Below are positions 2,021 to 45,789 of a stretch of DNA of 64,000 bases, piece by piece. Made by a program: the position numbers and the translations under genes. The notes beneath the pieces were generated by a model that saw only the letters and a program-made list of their open reading frames with translations, was not told the DNA's origin and made no database searches. The stretch is from an uncultured Nitrososphaeraceae archaeon (GTDB lineage Archaea; Thermoproteota; Nitrososphaeria; Nitrososphaerales; Nitrososphaeraceae): the NCBI GenBank assembly GCA_963729045.1, contig CAVSMN010000018.1, forward strand, positions 78,964 through 142,963. The letters run 5' to 3'. Numbering within the stretch: the first letter of the stretch is position 1; every line of letters starts with the position of its first letter.

Positions 2021-2072
2021 TTAATCGGTAGAGATAAGATATAATATCTTCGAGTCCAGTCATGACCAAAGA

Positions 2073-2116
2073 GCTGCTCTGCGGGGGATTAAGTTCCTAG
2101 TGGCACTAGGTTCGAA
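2073..2116 (+). repeat. Dispersed repeat, arm type A
   Basis: gctctgcgggggattaagttcctagtggcactaggttcgaa; perfect CCTAGTG-G-CACTAGG dyad. Confidence 0.85.
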
Positions 2117-2292
2117 TAAAGATGGATTGTACATACTCGCCCTAATCATGCTAAATCTTTTTTAATTAGGTTTTGTCATTTGGTCTAAAGATTTGCGATT
2201 ATGTTGTGAATTTCAAACTACCATTTCCATCTCTGAGCATGATACAGAACTGAAATTTATAATACCGTCATGATAATATAAAATGACTTTAG

Positions 2293-4257
2293 CTGAATAA
2301 CCTTCCACAACCCCTTACGAAATCTAATCTAGTAGAGAATTTCCCATTTTCAACACAGCGAGAAAATCAGAAAAGGGTATTAGAGGACATACGTACTGCC
2401 TTTAATTCTGGTTACAGATATGTGTTATTAGAAGCTCCGACCGGATTTGGAAAAAGTGCAGTAGCCATAGCACTTGCTTTGAGCTTAGGTTCAAGCTATA
2501 TCTGTACATCTACCAAAGACTTACAAACCCAATATTCCAATGATTTTCCATATATTAAGGCAGCTAAGGGAAAAAATAACTTCCCTTGTTTACTTAAACA
2601 AGACTTTGTAGACAATGGAACCTATCAATGTGGAATATGTGCTTCATCTAATCCAAATGAATGTTATCACACAACTGTTGAATATGGACATTGTATGACT
2701 AATGAATCCTTTAAAGAGGATGGCTGCAAGTACAGGACGTTTGCGAAAGACTATAAGACAATTAATGAAAGAACAAAAGATGAAAAAATATACATTGACA
2801 GTGATACTAAACGAAAATATCAAAAACAATTTTCTGAATGGTTACCTATAAGCAAACTAAAGATACGAAGAGAGTGGAAACCTTGTGAATACTTTAATCA
2901 ACTAAATATCGCATTGGCATCCAGTCATTCTATATTCAATTATTCTATTTTTCTTGCATTCTTACCATATAATAAACGCCTCTCTGAAAGGGAACTTTTG
3001 GTATTGGATGAGGGACATCTTTTAGAAACAGAAATTGTAAAGTTTAGGGGATTATCAATATCTAAAAAGAGATGGAAACGGTATGTGGGTAATTTTGATA
3101 TAGTTGATTATGGTTATGACAGTATTGAAAGATGGATTGATTTTTTAATAGATCTTGAAACCAAAATGTTATCTGCAATTGGCAATGATTCTTTGGCATC
3201 CGTACTGGATATGGAGAGAAATGTTAAATTTGAATACTATAATTCAAGAAAGTTATTATCAGAAAACCGAGATTACAAAAAGAGAATAGTTTCTGCAACT
3301 GAATTGTTTGAAAGTGATGAAGAAATAGCAAAGAAATATGCTAATGTTGAAATTGCATCAAAAGATAATACAAAAACTCTTGGCGATGAGCTTACTGTTG
3401 ATGCTATTAAAGACACAGAAAGGTTGACAAGAACAATAAACAGCATACTTGCAAACCCAAAAAATTGGATAATTTCAGATATCAAAAAAGACAATTACAA
3501 AGTAGAGAAAGTGGAATTAAAACCCCTAGATATATCACCCTACTGTAAGGCTGTCTTTGAAAAGGGATCCAAAACGCTGATAATGAGTGCGACTATCCTA
3601 AATAACAAGGCATTTTGTAAAAGTATTGGTTTAGATTCTGATGAAGTAAAATTTATTCAAGTTGAATCTGATTTTCCAATAGAGCATAGAGCAATTTATC
3701 CCCTAAATGTTGCATATCTTAATTACAGTAACTTACAATCTATTGATATTATGTCTAAAATTTCTAATGTCGTTGATAATTTAATGTCTACTCATAAAAA
3801 TGACAAGGGCATAATCCATACAACATCGTATGAGCAACTTAACTTTATCAAAGAAAATCTATCTAAGGAAAATGCAAGAAGGCTCCTAATTACTGATCCA
3901 GAAATACCAAGAGACGAAATTATATCTCAACATTCTTCCACTCCAAAACCAACGGTACCTATTTCACCCTCACTTCACACAGGACTTGATTTGAAGGATG
4001 ACCTGTCAAGATTTCAGATTATAACTAAAGTGCCATATCCAAACAAAAGTGATAGGTGGACTAATGCAAAGAGAGAGGTTGATGAAGAATGGTATTATTG
4101 GCAGACAGCATTGAGATTAATACAGGCATATGGAAGATCAGTTAGATCCAAAGATGATTGGGCAAGGACATATGTTTTGGACTCGGCTTTTAACTATTTT
4201 ATAAGAAAGAATAGAAACACACTACCCGGATGGTTTATTCAAGCAATCAAAGGTTAG
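2293..4257 (+). CDS. DinG/XPD-family (SF2) ATP-dependent DNA helicase
   Basis: Q-motif FPF..R..Q lies in frame upstream of the called start 2422; Walker A EAPTGFGKS, Cys cluster, DEGH, SAT, QAYGRSVR. Confidence 0.88.
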   Translation: MNNLPQPLTKSNLVENFPFSTQRENQKRVLEDIRTAFNSGYRYVLLEAPTGFGKSAVAIALALSLGSSYICTSTKDLQTQYSNDFPYIKAAKGKNNFPCLLKQDFVDNGTYQCGICASSNPNECYHTTVEYGHCMTNESFKEDGCKYRTFAKDYKTINERTKDEKIYIDSDTKRKYQKQFSEWLPISKLKIRREWKPCEYFNQLNIALASSHSIFNYSIFLAFLPYNKRLSERELLVLDEGHLLETEIVKFRGLSISKKRWKRYVGNFDIVDYGYDSIERWIDFLIDLETKMLSAIGNDSLASVLDMERNVKFEYYNSRKLLSENRDYKKRIVSATELFESDEEIAKKYANVEIASKDNTKTLGDELTVDAIKDTERLTRTINSILANPKNWIISDIKKDNYKVEKVELKPLDISPYCKAVFEKGSKTLIMSATILNNKAFCKSIGLDSDEVKFIQVESDFPIEHRAIYPLNVAYLNYSNLQSIDIMSKISNVVDNLMSTHKNDKGIIHTTSYEQLNFIKENLSKENARRLLITDPEIPRDEIISQHSSTPKPTVPISPSLHTGLDLKDDLSRFQIITKVPYPNKSDRWTNAKREVDEEWYYWQTALRLIQAYGRSVRSKDDWARTYVLDSAFNYFIRKNRNTLPGWFIQAIKG

Positions 4258-36484: not shown

Positions 36485-37161
36485 GGCGCTGTTAACTTAG
36501 GCGTTTAGCACTTCCTTGTTGTGTATTTTTACAAAAAGATTCAACCAGTTTTTGACATGATTTAGTTTACACTTCTCTTTACTACATGGAAAGTAATCGT
36601 CAAATCCTTCAGTTCGATCCTTGAAATACTGCATTGTTCTTTCTATCAGGCTTTTCTCTAATGAGGAATGAAAATGGTGTTTTAGTTTTAGGAATCTACA
36701 AGCTATTGGGTACCATGTTCCCAATCTGTAGATATAGAATGTTTTCCATGAATCTTGACCAAACCTGAGAGAAACCTTTCTGCTATTAGCATGTTCCTCT
36801 TCTTAGATATGGATAGTGCGAGAATCTGCCTATTTTCTGGCTCGATTGCTGCCCATAACCAGGTGTATTCAGAGCCGACTTTTATTAATGTCTCATCAAT
36901 GATGTATTCTGATATTTTTGTTCTTCTTGTTGAAAACCTTTCGAGGTTTATACTTTTAAATCCAATTCCAAATTGCAACGTGACTTCTATTGATAACATG
37001 TAAAAAGGACAATGCTTTGACAGAATTTCTGAGCGATAAACCAAGAAAGTACAAATAAAGACCATGGTAAATATGCTCTGAAGATATTCTCTTTCTTTTA
37101 CTTAACATAACAGAAATAAAGCATCTTTAAGCTAAAGATTTATAGTTAAGTTAACAGGATC
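36485..37161 (-). mobile_element. Degenerate IS6-family insertion sequence
   Basis: Transposase 37108-36497 (IIDET..KVG, W.AIEP, STD, IER) with stop and frameshifts; terminal IRs sharing ctgttaactta; 8-bp flanking direct repeat ctgtgatc/ctgtgatt. Confidence 0.9.
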
Positions 37162-41480: not shown

Positions 41481-41759
41481 ATTAACTTTTTACATCTCCG
41501 TAAAGTTATTTTAGACAATTTCCGTTCTAGTTGATAAACGTTTGAAGATTTTTCGGATTGGCTTTGTTGTATTAACGATGGGCAATTTTATTATTTTTTT
41601 TGATTTTATCATACAATTATATGTTATAACATGTTAATATATGTTACGCAGCGTAATACATGTATTTACTATGTTGCAATTCCTGTGTCACTATTTTCAT
41701 AAAATTAAATCTGGGTAAAATTAATTAGTTATTTTTTGTTTCTTAATACAAAAAGTAAT

Positions 41760-41917
41760 TTGATACCTTTCTATCTCTGAACGCCAACTATCAAGGAAAT
41801 CATAAGAGAAGAGGATCTCGCCTCTTCGAACCAATGAGTGGTTATAAAAAGGCCGGTCAACTATTGAAAATGTAGACCAAAATCTAAGCCAAATATGTTG
41901 AGTAATGCGACAGAGCA
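41760..41917 (-). mobile_element. IS5-family transposase 5' fragment with one end
   Basis: YNHSLVRRGEILFSYDFLDSW N-terminal motif; GCTCTGTCGCATTA IR-like end. Confidence 0.7.
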
Positions 41918-42005
41918 CTAATGATAGCTAAAACTGATAGATAGCAATCATCAAATACAATTGATAGAAATAGACAAATTTAGAGAAGGCGAAATCTAAA
42001 CTGAT

Positions 42006-42287
42006 ATGACAGCCATGAGTGCTATTCATGTTGTTTCCATTAGAGATTTTGTTTCAGCGGATTTAGATATTAAAAAAAGTGCGATGACTTTTGTTGAAAA
42101 AGAGGTTGAGTATGCCCCTTCAGATGATATTATAATTGATTTTTCTAATGTCAAATCAATTACTCCCGAATTTGCCCACCAATATTTGATGAGTAAGCGC
42201 AAAATTAAAAAGGAAATTCACGAAGTGAATCTACCTTCACATGTGGAATCGATAATCAACAAAGCACAGAAATCTATCAATAAGTAA
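42006..42287 (+). CDS. STAS-like (DUF4325-type) small protein
   Basis: IIIDFSNVKSITPEFAHQYL..K, EVN. Confidence 0.7.
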   Translation: MTAMSAIHVVSIRDFVSADLDIKKSAMTFVEKEVEYAPSDDIIIDFSNVKSITPEFAHQYLMSKRKIKKEIHEVNLPSHVESIINKAQKSINK

Positions 42288-42853
42288 TATATTCTCTCTT
42301 GGCACTTAGATATTTTTAATATTATTAGATTACATGAATTTCTAATTTACTCGTACATTTGAGGATTCTTTACATTAGGCTTAAAATCTTTTTATAATTG
42401 ATATATTCATGACTCTCATTGCAAGCAATAACAATTTGGACGCTTAAATAAAAGTTACAAAGAAGCAATGCTTAAGCTCAATGACAAGGCTTCTTCACAA
42501 TTTAAACAAAATATGGATAATATGAGAGTAAAGAATCCTCAAACTGAAGATGAACAGATTTCAACCAGGCCCGGTGGGATGTTATTTAAAAATGAATGAA
42601 ATCCTTCTAATTTAAAAACAGGTATCCTATGATTTTGATAATTGATCAATTATCTCATGATATAGGTGAGCATATTCATCAAAAAACATAGACTCGGTGG
42701 GCTTAATTTCAGTATGGCATAAAGGGACAGCAGTTTTGGCACACATCCTACTTCTTATTTTGGTAATTTGAGTTATAAATTGAGAGTTGTTATCATATAT
42801 CTACGCGTACTAACCCTTTAGAGCATATGGAAGATAAAATGAGGGGACAGTCC

Positions 42854-43109
42854 GTTTCAATCCTTGTTCTATTGGAATAGTCTTTCATAGCGCATGGTTC
42901 GTTATTATCCATTTTCTAATCCCATATCCCTAATTTTACCAATGATAATGCTATTGAAAATAATCCAATATAGAGAAAAATGACAAACCAGATAGCACCA
43001 TCTACTTCTTTTAGTCTCTTCATTTTATTCATTTCATCTGCTCCTTTTGTATATCACCATTAAATATATCAAGTTTCAATCCTTGTTCTATTGGAATATT
43101 CTTTCAGAG
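42854..43109 (-). CRISPR. Two orphan CRISPR-type 37-bp repeats (42854-42890, 43073-43109) separated by 182 bp
   Basis: GTTTCAATCCTTGTTCTATTGGAATA(G/T)TCTTTCA(T/G)AG, 35/37 identical; minus strand ends ATTGAAAC; no cas genes recognised in window. Confidence 0.65.
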
Positions 43110-43636
43110 AGCCTAAGTAGGCGTACAATTGAGCACAGTCTACATCATTTTTTACCATTATCCTCAGATGCGTCATCGGTATTAGCTATTTATGAGACCC
43201 TATTTAAAGATCCAACGCTCCATATTTTCCTATAACAACAACTAACGCACTTATTGCCAAAGTTTTGATAGAAGTCATTTAATAATAATTTGATTGACAA
43301 GATGCTCTTATTGTCACAAAGGACTTAACTCTAGTTATATCAGAGTCTGCAAAAGAATCTTTTAGGAAAGTAGGTCTAGCACAATTAGAAAATTTATTTT
43401 TTCAACTTAATAATTATGAAAATGATGATCAGATCCTAGATACAAAATATGTTACTGCTGACACTGATGAGCTGATTTTAGAAGCTTAATTTATCTAAAT
43501 AAAAAATATATTTTTTATTTCTCTTGTTTACTGTATTTTCCGAAACTCCTTAATAATACAATCTGCACGTTTGTATTTTAATTCCATTTACAAAACTTTT
43601 GATAAGCGATATTTCGTCAATTCCGCAAATATCATA

Positions 43637-43655
43637 AGTGGTAGTAGGGTTCTAA
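43637..43655 (+). repeat. Dispersed repeat, right arm (A) only
   Basis: agtggtagtagggttctaa, exact match to consensus 3' half. Confidence 0.7.
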
Positions 43656-43890
43656 TACCTTAATGATAACATATTTCTAAAATATTATTTTTCATAAGCT
43701 AGCCCAGGGGGCATTACAATAAACTTATTTTGAGCGTAATTTTGTTTTGTGTTAAGATCAAAAATAACTGAATTTTCAAATCGAACTTAAGAGGTTTTGG
43801 GTCGGATACGTAAAAGGGGGAAACAAATACTACGAAAAGTTCAAGTTAAAGATTTCATAAATAATTAAAATAAATTAGATGATGCATATT

Positions 43891-45789
43891 CTATTTTTCC
43901 ATCTCTGAAATTTTATTCATAAGCAAATTATAATGAAGTTCGGTTAATTTGCCTTTTGAAAAAGCATCCTTAATCTCTCTTACAAGCTTTAACTTTAATG
44001 AAAGATCTATTTCTTTATTATCGTCCATAGAATCGATTTTTTTCATAAATATCTCCTGATATAGTATGGATATTTCGTCTTTCAAATTCGAATAGTGAAA
44101 TTGGCTTATCTTACCTTTTGAAAATGAATCAGAGATTTCATCTTTCAGTTTATTCAGTGATTCAAAATCATGGTCATCTCGACTACCCTCTTCATATAGT
44201 GACTTTATTTTCTCATGGTGAAGATTTAATTTTTTTATGTCTCCTCTTGTTTTAGTCCATCCTATAATACTTGGAATAGAAGCGCCAATGATCGTCGAAA
44301 CAATTAAGCCATACAGAGGAATCCAGTATTCAGTAGGTAGGGGAGCAGGCAATTCCTTAAAACTCGCAGTAAAGGTACCATATTGGGTTAGGCAAAAGGA
44401 CGTATCCGCAGTGTCGTTGTAAATATTCAAAGTTTTTTGTATTGGTTCTATGACTGGATCATAAAAATTGTAAGATTCTTCTATACATTGTTTCAGCGGT
44501 CTAGTAGTATTTGAATCAATATTCTCATTCCAGCCTACAAACTCATAGCCACTATTTGCCTTCGCTATACAGGTTATACCCGGTACTTCATACAAGTATT
44601 GATTTATTGGATATTCAGTTTTATCATCACCACATAAAATCCTTCCAGAGTTTAAGGGAAATGTATTAAATGTAATTCCCACAGCAACTTTGTTTTTAGG
44701 ACCATGGATTGCGAACAAGCTATCAGAATCCTCAGATGTCAAATAAATAATGTTACTGTTCTCATCTACTTCAATATTCGAAAGTGGTTCAGACATGTTG
44801 ATATTAGAAAATCTTTTTGTTTTTTCGTTCAGAGAGTACAGGCCGTGTTCTGCTAGTACATATACTGTATTGGTATTCTCATTGACTTCTAATTCTAAGA
44901 GCGGCCCTAACAAAGGAATTATCTTATCAATTTTAGTATTCGTAGTTCCATTTATAATTGAAACATCGTTATCAGAAATTACATATATCATGTTATCGTT
45001 CTCATTAACCTCTAAAGTACGAGGTTTGTTTTTTAACTCAAGACCCGTCATTTGAGTATCATTATACTGTTTGTAAAAATTCTTCTCAGTAATTATATAT
45101 ACAGAATGGTCATTTTCATTGATTTCAATATCGGTCGGCTCTTTTTTATCTGGAATGGATAATTTTTCCAAAAACTTCAAATCATCATCAAAAATGAATA
45201 GTTCTGGTGGATCTTCATTAAGTACGTAAACTTTTTCTGCGTCTTCATCTACCGCTATTTTGGAAAAGTTTGCCTCTATATCATATTTATTAACTGAGTT
45301 GATATTAAGTGGATTGGAACCGTTATCATCAATCAACCTTATACCATCTTTTCCTGCAATATACAACTTACTTTCTTTTTCATTGACTTCAATATCGGTC
45401 GGCTCTTGATTCAAAGGTATATTTTGTAGTAACTCATCGGTTCTTCCGTCAATTATAGAGATAGTTTCTGAAGGGGATTTACCTGAAATATATACATGAT
45501 GTATTTTGTCATTTACTTCCTCATCGTGAGGTATTGTATTAATAAAAATTTCTTTTAGGGTTCCCAAATTGTTGTCTAAAATTGATATAGAATTAGAACG
45601 TTCGTTAGCCACATATACTTTGTTTAAAAATTTATCGACTTTTACCTCATTTGGCTCTATTCCTACTTCTAGCCGGGGATTGGTCATATGATATTTTTCA
45701 TTAATACTCTCCAGAGTCTGCCCAATTGCATTATTATTAAAAAACAGATTAGACAAAATAATTATCAAAAACAGAAAGATAACAGACAA
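43891..45789 (-). CDS. YncE/YVTN beta-propeller membrane protein
   Basis: Repeated P..IEVNE..N.VYV blades, GYEF.GW domain, TM, helical cytoplasmic tail. Confidence 0.82.
   Translation of the reverse strand: MSVIFLFLIIILSNLFFNNNAIGQTLESINEKYHMTNPRLEVGIEPNEVKVDKFLNKVYVANERSNSISILDNNLGTLKEIFINTIPHDEEVNDKIHHVYISGKSPSETISIIDGRTDELLQNIPLNQEPTDIEVNEKESKLYIAGKDGIRLIDDNGSNPLNINSVNKYDIEANFSKIAVDEDAEKVYVLNEDPPELFIFDDDLKFLEKLSIPDKKEPTDIEINENDHSVYIITEKNFYKQYNDTQMTGLELKNKPRTLEVNENDNMIYVISDNDVSIINGTTNTKIDKIIPLLGPLLELEVNENTNTVYVLAEHGLYSLNEKTKRFSNINMSEPLSNIEVDENSNIIYLTSEDSDSLFAIHGPKNKVAVGITFNTFPLNSGRILCGDDKTEYPINQYLYEVPGITCIAKANSGYEFVGWNENIDSNTTRPLKQCIEESYNFYDPVIEPIQKTLNIYNDTADTSFCLTQYGTFTASFKELPAPLPTEYWIPLYGLIVSTIIGASIPSIIGWTKTRGDIKKLNLHHEKIKSLYEEGSRDDHDFESLNKLKDEISDSFSKGKISQFHYSNLKDEISILYQEIFMKKIDSMDDNKEIDLSLKLKLVREIKDAFSKGKLTELHYNLLMNKISEMEK

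Follow-up and report, generated by a model that had tools for sequence, protein, structure and literature searches.

What would keep two full-length copies of a clustered regularly interspaced short palindromic repeat (CRISPR) 182 nucleotides (nt) apart in a genome in which no CRISPR-associated (cas) genes are found? The question is raised by a 64,000-nt stretch of DNA, here called the window, from an uncultured archaeon of the family Nitrososphaeraceae (GenBank assembly GCA_963729045.1, contig CAVSMN010000018.1). The archaeon and its relatives belong to Candidatus Nitrosocosmicus, soil ammonia-oxidising archaea, and its assembly (G000) comprises 2.85 Mb in 22 contigs, is 87% complete, and has a G+C content of 33%. 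The answer proposed here, which is given about an even chance of being right, is that the remains of a CRISPR leader and its repeats have been recycled to express a small membrane peptide resembling type I toxins, with the region around the start codon of the peptide masked by a fold-back of the same RNA.

The repeat pair and its type I-B origin

Both repeats are 37 nt long, lie on the minus strand, and end in ATTGAAAC. Repeat 1 (minus strand 43109-43073) reads CTCTGAAAGAATATTCCAATAGAACAAGGATTGAAAC, and repeat 2 differs from it at positions 3 and 11 only (35/37 identical), with a start-to-start distance of 219 nt. These values reproduce the coordinates, the identity, and the 182-nt interval of a first, sequence-only reading of the locus by a model. 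A 26-nt core of the repeat has two matches in the window, compared with none in each of 100 shuffles, and a search of the whole G000 assembly at up to three mismatches returned only the same two. The 3' 19 nt of repeat 1 are unchanged in 12 of the 13 distinct copies of the locus, and both repeats retain the parts that are conserved in genuine arrays of their family, CTnTGAAAG at the 5' end and AACAAGGATTGAAAC at the 3' end. No CRISPR array was found in G000, where a periodic k-mer scan marked 24 places, of which the six largest, inspected with Tandem Repeats Finder (TRF), were all coding tandem repeats. The spacing of a canonical array is also absent at the locus itself, which has two repeats only, 182 nt apart, against the periods of 70-75 nt seen in the family. 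There were no Rfam matches at gathering score and no tRNAs in the window.

The repeat core was searched at up to three mismatches in 201 genomes of Nitrososphaeraceae and was present in 16 of them. In G019 (13 matches), G132 (7), G075 (4), and G101 (3), the copies recur at 70-75-nt periods and are therefore true arrays. G132 and G019 belong to the same genus as the window genome, and in both the array comes after an operon of the order cas7-cas5-cas3-cas6b-cas1-cas2-cas4, encoding Cas7/Csh2, Cas5b, Cas3, Cas6b (PF17262 and PF17955), Cas1, Cas2, and Cas4. Repeat 1 of the window shares 33 of its 37 positions with the repeat of G132 and 29 with that of G019, and the window repeats, including their 3' ATTGAAAC, belong to the CRISPR repeat family of the type I-B (Cas6b) systems of Nitrososphaeraceae. 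The suggestion of the sequence-only reading that they are genuine archaeal repeats of the Cas6 type is supported by a 37-nt family that forms arrays beside type I-B operons, and a simple local duplication is excluded.

On its 5' side, repeat 1 is preceded by DNA that shares homology with the end of cas4 and the leader in G132 and G019, as expected in front of a canonical array. A 36-codon open reading frame (ORF) found there ends with QNFGNKCVSCCYRKIWSVGSL, which matches the cysteine-rich C-terminus of G019 Cas4; by tblastn, residues 178-198 of that protein (QQYSNKCINCCYRKICPVGSL) are 67% identical to QNFGNKCVSCCYRKIWSVGSL of the window and 76% identical to the same segment in other copies. 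The remnant corresponds to approximately the last 21 codons of cas4, and 50 of its 65 bases are identical to G132 at the DNA level. The leader remnant that follows is identical to the G132 leader at 54 of 95 positions, while the leaders of G132 and G019 agree with each other at 48 of 94; the cas4-tail, leader, and repeat region of the window is as close to G132 as G132 is to G019. An A/T-rich box, GGTAAAAAATGA, lies in the leader remnant approximately 30-40 nt 5' of repeat 1, and the remnant probably carries a promoter. Because the DNA 5' of repeat 1 consists of a cas4 tail and a leader, the repeat pair is, by sequence comparison, the junction of cas4, leader, and array, and so represents what is left of the front of a lost type I-B locus, severed on both sides. 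It shares its repeat family, its homologous cas4 tail and leader, its ATTGAAAC end, and its orientation with the loci of G132 and G019, but it has two repeats, a 182-nt coding unit in place of a 34-38-nt spacer, no cas genes, and a place in unrelated genomic contexts.

Two further observations concern the repeat family at large. The type I-B locus of G132 (L044, G132:C11) is partly decayed in appearance, with cas7/Csh2 split into two ORFs (2072-3034) and the cysteine-rich end of cas4 (L044 8590-8660) in a different frame from the remainder of that gene. Solitary full-length repeats of the family also stand between ordinary genes of other genomes, in L047 (G148:C188, 8883-8922), L011 (G185), and L013 (G028), with no second copy within 1.5 kb. 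The G148 copy lies between an alcohol-dehydrogenase-like and a RibD-like gene, and the solitary repeats of L009, L011, and L013 were accompanied by neither a second copy nor a similar small ORF.

The peptide gene and the complementary tail

The interval between the repeats contains the gene for a peptide of 38 amino acids (aa), MNKMKRLKEVDGAIWFVIFLYIGLFSIALSLVKLGIWD, which is composed of a charged N-terminus, a helix of 20 uncharged hydrophobic residues (A13-V32), and a short C-terminus, the uncharged stretch being flanked by charged ends. The peptide is predicted to insert into the membrane as a single helix, and with 38 aa, it falls in the size range of the hydrophobic membrane peptides of type I toxin-antitoxin (TA) systems (<60 aa). 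Its gene is single-copy in the G000 genome. No relatives were found in Pfam, there was no match above 0.85 in the Atlas, and when 1.84 billion representatives were searched with a profile, the only matches were the 38-aa cluster of the peptide itself and three partial hydrophobic ones.

Across the 13 distinct copies, the ORF is the most conserved segment of the locus and the linker that follows its stop codon the least (Table 1). The sole copy with a damaged ORF, in G177, carries a 2-nt deletion near its end; the other 12 are free of insertions and deletions (indels) despite the indels that are common immediately outside the ORF. The linker, in which three copies share a 17-nt deletion, appears dispensable. 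All amino acid replacements in the peptide are conservative (I/V/L/M, K/R, A/S, F/L, and W/L), and the ratio of nonsynonymous to synonymous substitution rates (dN/dS) is approximately 0.31 (Nei-Gojobori, ratio of means, 27 pairs of eight distinct ORFs).

Table 1. Features of the locus on the minus strand, with the mean pairwise identity of each segment over 13 distinct copies.
Feature	Position in window	Strand	Basis or property	Mean pairwise identity
Whole conserved module (cas4 tail, leader, repeat 1, peptide gene, repeat 2, tail)	42757..43377	minus	cross-genome alignment	
36-codon ORF with remnant of cas4 C-terminus	43190..43300; homologous part 43205-43267	minus	tblastn and DNA alignment	
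CRISPR leader remnant	43110..43189	minus	aligns with G132 leader between cas4 and first repeat	
Core leader				84.2%
Repeat 1, 37-nt type I-B (Cas6b-type) CRISPR repeat ending ATTGAAAC	43073..43109	minus	33/37 identity to G132 array repeat	91.6%
5' untranslated region (UTR)	43033..43072	minus	GGAG 8 nt before start codon	90.1%
Gene for 38-aa peptide (ORF)	42916..43032	minus	best-conserved segment; intact in 12/13 distinct copies	95.3%
Linker, stop codon to repeat 2	42891..42915	minus	least conserved segment	64.9%
Repeat 2, 37-nt CRISPR repeat ending ATTGAAAC	42854..42890	minus	35/37 identity to repeat 1	89.2%
Tail after repeat 2	42757..42853	minus	first ~60 nt (42794-42853) complementary to 5' UTR and start region of peptide mRNA	79.5%

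The conservation of this coding unit bears on the decayed array that had been suspected at the locus, in which the interval would be made of three decayed repeat-spacer units (219 = 3 x 73) and the ORF would have arisen from them by chance or de novo. The arithmetic is exact in the window copy (182 = 3 x 36 + 2 x 37). Against it, the best local alignment of the repeats to the interval was equalled or exceeded by 1,220 of 2,000 shuffles for repeat 1 and by 406 of 2,000 for repeat 2, a chance level that also takes in the faint repeat-like stretch reported at ~42936-42973. At the two registers predicted by a 73-nt period, 11 of 37 and 9 of 37 bases match. The interval is, moreover, the most conserved and not the most decayed part of the locus, and its length varies among copies, as in those with the 17-nt deletion. 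The chance that this explanation is right is accordingly put close to nil, and the arithmetic is a coincidence as far as can be judged from the letters. The sequence-only reading thus stands in its descent from a CRISPR locus and its genuine repeats and falls in its decayed interval; the regulatory RNAs that it offered instead are, as described below, very improbable.

The second conserved relation within the unit is between its two ends. The first ~60 nt after repeat 2 can pair, with bulges, with the 5' UTR, the GGAG region, and codons 1-6 of the peptide gene. In the RNAalifold consensus, helices of 10 bp, 5 bp, and 9 bp lie over the start codon (GAUGAAAUGA with UCAUUUUAUC), over the GGAGC region, and further 5', respectively. 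The duplex of the tail has an energy of -31.5 kcal/mol, compared with -18.3 +/- 3.4 for dinucleotide shuffles of the tail, and a value as low was reached in two of 1,000 shuffles and in four of 1,360 genomic windows (the true site included). The fold-back pairing is kept in 95% of cells across 11 distinct sequences, and the alternation of U-G with C-G at one pair together with a G-U at another fits pairing of the sense RNA.

These observations suggest how the unit may operate. A single RNA running from repeat 1 through the peptide mRNA and repeat 2 into the tail would be transcribed from the old leader promoter, and its selected product would be the peptide, a small hydrophobic protein of the type I TA kind. 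The ribosome-binding and start region would be masked by the ~60 nt after repeat 2 in a 5'-3' fold-back such as that of hok-type toxin mRNAs. In the present hosts without Cas6b, the repeats could act only through the sequence or structure of the RNA; if a cognate Cas6b were there, its cut, 8 nt from the end of each repeat, would detach the masking tail. The stub survives as a discrete module of 0.4-0.6 kb that has moved between Nitrosocosmicus species without cas genes.

Distribution of the module and the Cas machinery of its hosts

The module is indeed a discrete unit. Within 10 kb on either side, it is the only stretch that aligns the window to G043 (93.1% over 624 nt) and to G186 (92.9% over 621 nt), and its limits, 42757-43377, recur in seven of 11 metagenome contigs. 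A shorter core, ~42760-43163, is common to the lineage of G124 and G164, in which the cas4 tail and most of the leader have been replaced; the module thus measures 0.4-0.6 kb. A profile of the peptide found one copy each in six of the 34 genomes of the genus (G000, G043, G186, G124, G164, and G177), and the same six carriers were recovered from 238 genomes of the family. A seventh, weak match in another genus (G117) was rejected as spurious, having no repeats and no real similarity. The exact ORF pattern occurs in four public genome contigs and in 11 contigs from soil and rhizosphere metagenomes. The module is present on all 11; 10 of them extend over both repeats, and the remaining one breaks off within the ORF, where the contig ends. 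The ORF is always accompanied by repeats.

At least three genomic contexts were observed. One flank (cyclase, 2OG-Fe(II) oxygenase, and OsmC) is common to G043 and G177, those of G186 and the window differ, and the flanks of G000, G043, and G186 do not align with one another. The 12 kb next to the module in the window finds its G043 counterpart elsewhere in that genome at 81-91% identity, and its G186 counterpart in scattered pieces of 68-81% identity. As the identity of the module exceeds that of the adjacent 12 kb in both comparisons, the sequences point to recent transfer of the module between species.

The surroundings of the module include several repeated and mobile sequences. A repeat element of ~95 nt, ending in ...GGACCnATATCGTCCTGAAGCCCACCGGGCCCGTT and containing two small hairpins, brackets the module in G186 (L014, at -483 and +338 from the ORF start) and lies at +333 to +338 from the ORF start in nine of the 15 loci scanned. 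The element also occurs in one orientation at kilobase spacing, at -8463, -3090, -2122, +335, and +8860 in L025, and at 3393, 21182, 22297, 34969, and 36956 on contig C20 of G000, with a degenerate copy near 42689-42706 of the window. Candidate identities for the element are an att-like scar, a cassette boundary, and a small-RNA or terminator element. A flanking motif, CCCACCGGGCCCG, resembles a tRNA 3' end and was considered as a possible tRNA-derived att site; no tRNA was detected by ARAGORN in four loci. At a distance of 6 kb from the module, the window contains part of a DDE (IS240-type) transposase gene, 120 codons long (36703-37065), and DDE_3 and HTH_7 fragments occur near the module in G177, G043, and G186. 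In the window, the ~2.4 kb around the module (41500-43890) contains no ORF of more than 93 codons, with a weak DUF4325-like ORF at 42006-42287 and a perfect 16-nt inverted repeat at 42358-42373 and 42528-42543. The product of the adjoining 632-codon ORF (43891-45789) is repetitive and beta-propeller-like, has a hydrophobic segment and a coiled part at its C-terminal end, and gave only a marginal match in Pfam.

The module was also found in RNA libraries, which were surveyed with the G043 copy as the query in runs picked because they hold the module. Thirteen runs recorded as RNA, from 11 studies, contain 18-49% of the sampled words of this copy, and both repeats, the ORF, and the tail are covered at a depth of 2-7 by contigs from four soil or rhizosphere metatranscriptomes (four studies). 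The single contig from run X6 corresponds to L025 9908-10111 and starts 2 nt from the cut predicted in repeat 1, though neither its ends nor the uncovered parts of the stretch are readable as transcript ends. In run X4, record 9 (L025 9887-10141) holds a canonical unit of repeat, 37-nt spacer, and repeat of the same family in a soil metatranscriptome; hosts with active arrays of this family therefore live in similar soils.

Several of the observations weigh against the reading of a selected peptide under fold-back control. Among five distinct full-length copies, the cas4 tail, which is presumably neutral, is 93.6% identical, the repeats 95-96%, and the ORF 96.2%; much of their similarity therefore reflects recent common descent or transfer and not selection. 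The excess of third-position changes in the ORF is mild, with 7, 5, and 2 variable columns at codon positions 3, 1, and 2 (n = 14), and the GGAG varies across copies, with AGAGC, AGAAC, and ACAGC among the variants. Since the peptide has no known relatives, its size and hydrophobicity are all that would justify the word toxin. No antisense antitoxin RNA was seen, although no search aimed at one was made. Covariation in the fold-back is weak (both bases have changed at a single pair, and the score was attained in 47 of 500 shuffles), and the fold of the whole transcript is no more stable than that of shuffles (z = 0.22). With 95% of cells paired and one covarying pair, the structure is therefore best described as conserved and not proven by covariation. 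Run X2 covers the flanking genes as well as the module, and DNA may have been carried over into the RNA runs. As the runs were chosen for the module and their contigs are unstranded and lack transcript ends, they give weak support to transcription of the module.

A rival reading is a plain CRISPR wreck, of which a cas4 stub, a leader, and two repeats remain, with a functionless ORF and a young module that hitch-hikes on mobile DNA. Stubs of dismantled CRISPR loci are of an ordinary and common kind, the cas4 remnant of the five full-length copies is as conserved as the repeats, the ~95-nt element brackets the module in G186 and keeps a fixed distance from it in nine of 15 loci, and transposase fragments lie nearby. 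However, conservation is graded in the deeper comparison with the lineage of G124 and G164, in which the ORF is 95% identical, repeat 1 91%, repeat 2 88%, the tail 85%, and the linker 59%, with the upstream part replaced. Given the conserved cas4 tail of the full-length copies, the evidence for selection comes mainly from this comparison and from the ORF statistics. The freedom of the ORF from indels in 12 of 13 copies, its dN/dS, and the complementarity of the tail to the start region, which chance is unlikely to produce, also speak against a wreck. A functionless remnant is therefore considered unlikely, and the reading of a peptide expressed from a recycled stub is kept.

The statement of the sequence-only reading that no cas genes are present was upheld by all searches. 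Pfam found no Cas families in the 23 ORFs of window 30988-55541, searches of G000 with the Cas1, Cas6, and Cas6b families gave no matches, and tblastn of G000 with 12 Cas proteins from genomes of the same genus reached a best E of 0.078, an absence that is not proven because the assembly is 87% complete. The carrier G043, a single contig of 99% completeness, is also without cognate cas genes, and no Cas3 above the cut-off, no Cas5, and no repeat-associated mysterious proteins (RAMP) were found in G043, G186, G124, and G164. In the 34 genomes of the genus, Cas6b was found in three (G132, G019, and G148), Cas1 in four, and a different Cas6 (PF01881) in three. The only carrier with cas genes is G177 (G177:C225 5060-7339), in which a cas3 with three in-frame stops stands beside cas5 and a Cas6 of another family; this genome also holds the sole frameshifted and partly deleted copy of the module. 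The peptide was not found in the five cas-bearing genomes searched (best E 0.22).

The two repeats of the module tend to change together. Changes at the same position of both were found in G186 (C>T at 17), L033 (G>A at 28), and G177 (T at 11), and in the lineage of G124 and G164, the CC at positions 16-17 has become AT in repeat 1 and TT or AT in repeat 2. Fixed differences between the repeats at positions 3 and 37 persist across lineages. The summed within-copy differences (28) are the minimum over all pairings of seven lineages, and two of 5,040 permutations were as low. Short-tract gene conversion or shared selection could have caused these changes.

In another rival reading, the module would be a mobile toxin gated by Cas6b. 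The full RNA would be silenced by the tail, a cut in repeat 2 by the Cas6b of a cognate type I-B system would free the ORF, and cells already carrying or newly gaining such a system would be penalised. This would explain the concerted change of both repeats and the lack of overlap between carriers and Cas6b, as the module was found in none of the three Cas6b genomes of the genus and Cas6b in none of the six carriers. Both repeats keep the conserved ends of genuine arrays, the predicted cut site in repeat 2 falls exactly between the ORF and the complementary tail, the one cas-bearing carrier combines a broken cas3 with a damaged module, and RNA from soil of a like kind contains a canonical array with this repeat. 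However, approximately 0.5 genomes with both would be expected where none was observed, so that the exclusivity is not significant and is suggestive only. One lineage shows erosion of repeat 2 (ATGGAAAC and a deletion of 1 nt), gene conversion can yield the same-position changes, and the two RNAs could remain paired after the predicted cut. A Cas6b-gated penalty is thus distinctly improbable. The reverse arrangement, in which the module is an addiction module for Cas, is possible in principle, but such a CreTA-like role is contradicted by the intact ORFs in genomes without cas genes, including the complete single-contig one.

Relation to known systems and significance

Toxin mRNAs of the hok/Sok type are inhibited by a 5'-3' fold-back, and removal of their 3' part activates translation. 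The present module resembles them in its small membrane peptide and in the predicted long-range pairing of the 3' part of the mRNA with the translation-initiation region, so that loss of this 3' part would activate translation here too. It differs from them in having no homology, in that its fold-back is predicted, and in its candidate trimming site, which is a CRISPR repeat and not a 3' exonuclease stop. A second likeness is to the type I TA modules of Clostridium difficile, in which genes for small hydrophobic peptides are likewise physically linked to CRISPR DNA of type I-B, structure in the toxin mRNAs is predicted to conceal the ribosome-binding site, and the setting is often mobile or prophage DNA, as here (Maikova et al. 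2018, PMC5961336). As that text describes them, those modules are bacterial, lie beside arrays, and encode peptides of 40-60 aa with demonstrated antisense RNA and toxicity (PMC5961336), whereas the gene described here, known from sequence alone, lies between two repeats of an archaeal array stub and has no sequence similarity to them. On this comparison, the module would work most like the C. difficile type I TA modules and the hok-type mRNAs, and it appears to be a member of no known system compared.

The CreTA and CrePA systems, as far as the available accounts describe them, likewise link pairs of ectopic CRISPR repeats to a toxin-like gene through a guide-like RNA of partial complementarity (PMC8501985; PMC9458426). 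In the same accounts, however, CreTA is found inside cas operons with the toxin beside a mini-CRISPR, the Cas effector represses the toxin, and loss of Cas releases it. The carriers of the present module are without Cas and keep the ORF intact, five of the six having no effector genes, and no cas operon was found in the window or its genome. CreA guides are described, in the part of the work available, as requiring matches next to the protospacer adjacent motif (PAM) (10.1101/2024.01.05.574328), and the PAM-proximal guide bases are unmatched here. A mini-array is defined in a recent survey as a pair of repeat-like sequences separated by 15-60 bp within or near a CRISPR-cas locus (Shmakov et al., PMC10120712). 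Mini-arrays and Racr RNAs share with the module, to the extent that those texts show, the occurrence of CRISPR repeats outside a normal array and a possible non-defence role (PMC10120712; PMC10651486), but the repeats described here are 182 bp apart, lie far from any cas gene, enclose a coding sequence, and were not found in viral contigs.

These systems underlie the proposal of the sequence-only reading that the repeats might make regulatory or decoy RNAs, that is, CRISPR RNA-like products that guide a Cas effector (CreA- or CreR-like) or soak up Cas6 and Cas7 (Racr-like). Two ectopic full-length repeats with a leader, followed after repeat 2 by RNA complementary to the 5' region of the module itself, agree with such a role, and in these respects the layout is like that of mini-arrays and of solitary repeat units as the available texts present them (PMC10120712; PMC10651486). 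The CreA-like version fails on location, the module being neither in nor near a cas locus, and on effectors, as no effector genes were found in five of the six carriers (no Cas3 over the cut-off, Cas5, RAMP, or Cas6b). It also fails on seed pairing, since the first five nt after the repeat 2 handle (GGACT) face TTTTA in the sole complementary site. The 182-nt "spacer" lies outside the 15-60 bp of the mini-array definition as given in the available text (PMC10120712). For the Racr-like version, viral contigs gave no support: none contained the ORF pattern, and none of the seven that contain a 19-mer of the repeat had the full repeat, six having more than 12 mismatches of 37 and one having 12. 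A decoy, moreover, would need no conserved ORF. Regulatory or decoy RNAs are accordingly regarded as very improbable, and the fold-back-controlled peptide remains the preferred reading.

Ectopic CRISPR repeats are now known to regulate cas genes, to guard CRISPR loci with toxins, and to serve viruses as decoys. As the survey definition of repeats 15-60 bp apart near cas genes stands in its available text (PMC10120712), such surveys would miss the unit described here. In a limited literature search, supplementary tables aside, no published description was found of a protein-coding unit between two genuine CRISPR-stub repeats or of this module in Nitrosocosmicus. A unit with a CRISPR leader and two full repeats around a conserved coding insert spreads among abundant soil ammonia oxidisers without CRISPR-Cas. 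If its peptide is a toxin under fold-back control, it would constitute a type I-toxin-like system in archaea built from CRISPR parts, and should Cas6b gate the module, mobile DNA would have a new means of sensing the host immune system, with CRISPR repeats as the sensor. Even on the plain reading, the module shows how the remains of a defence locus can come to provide a new small gene with its promoter and RNA scaffold.

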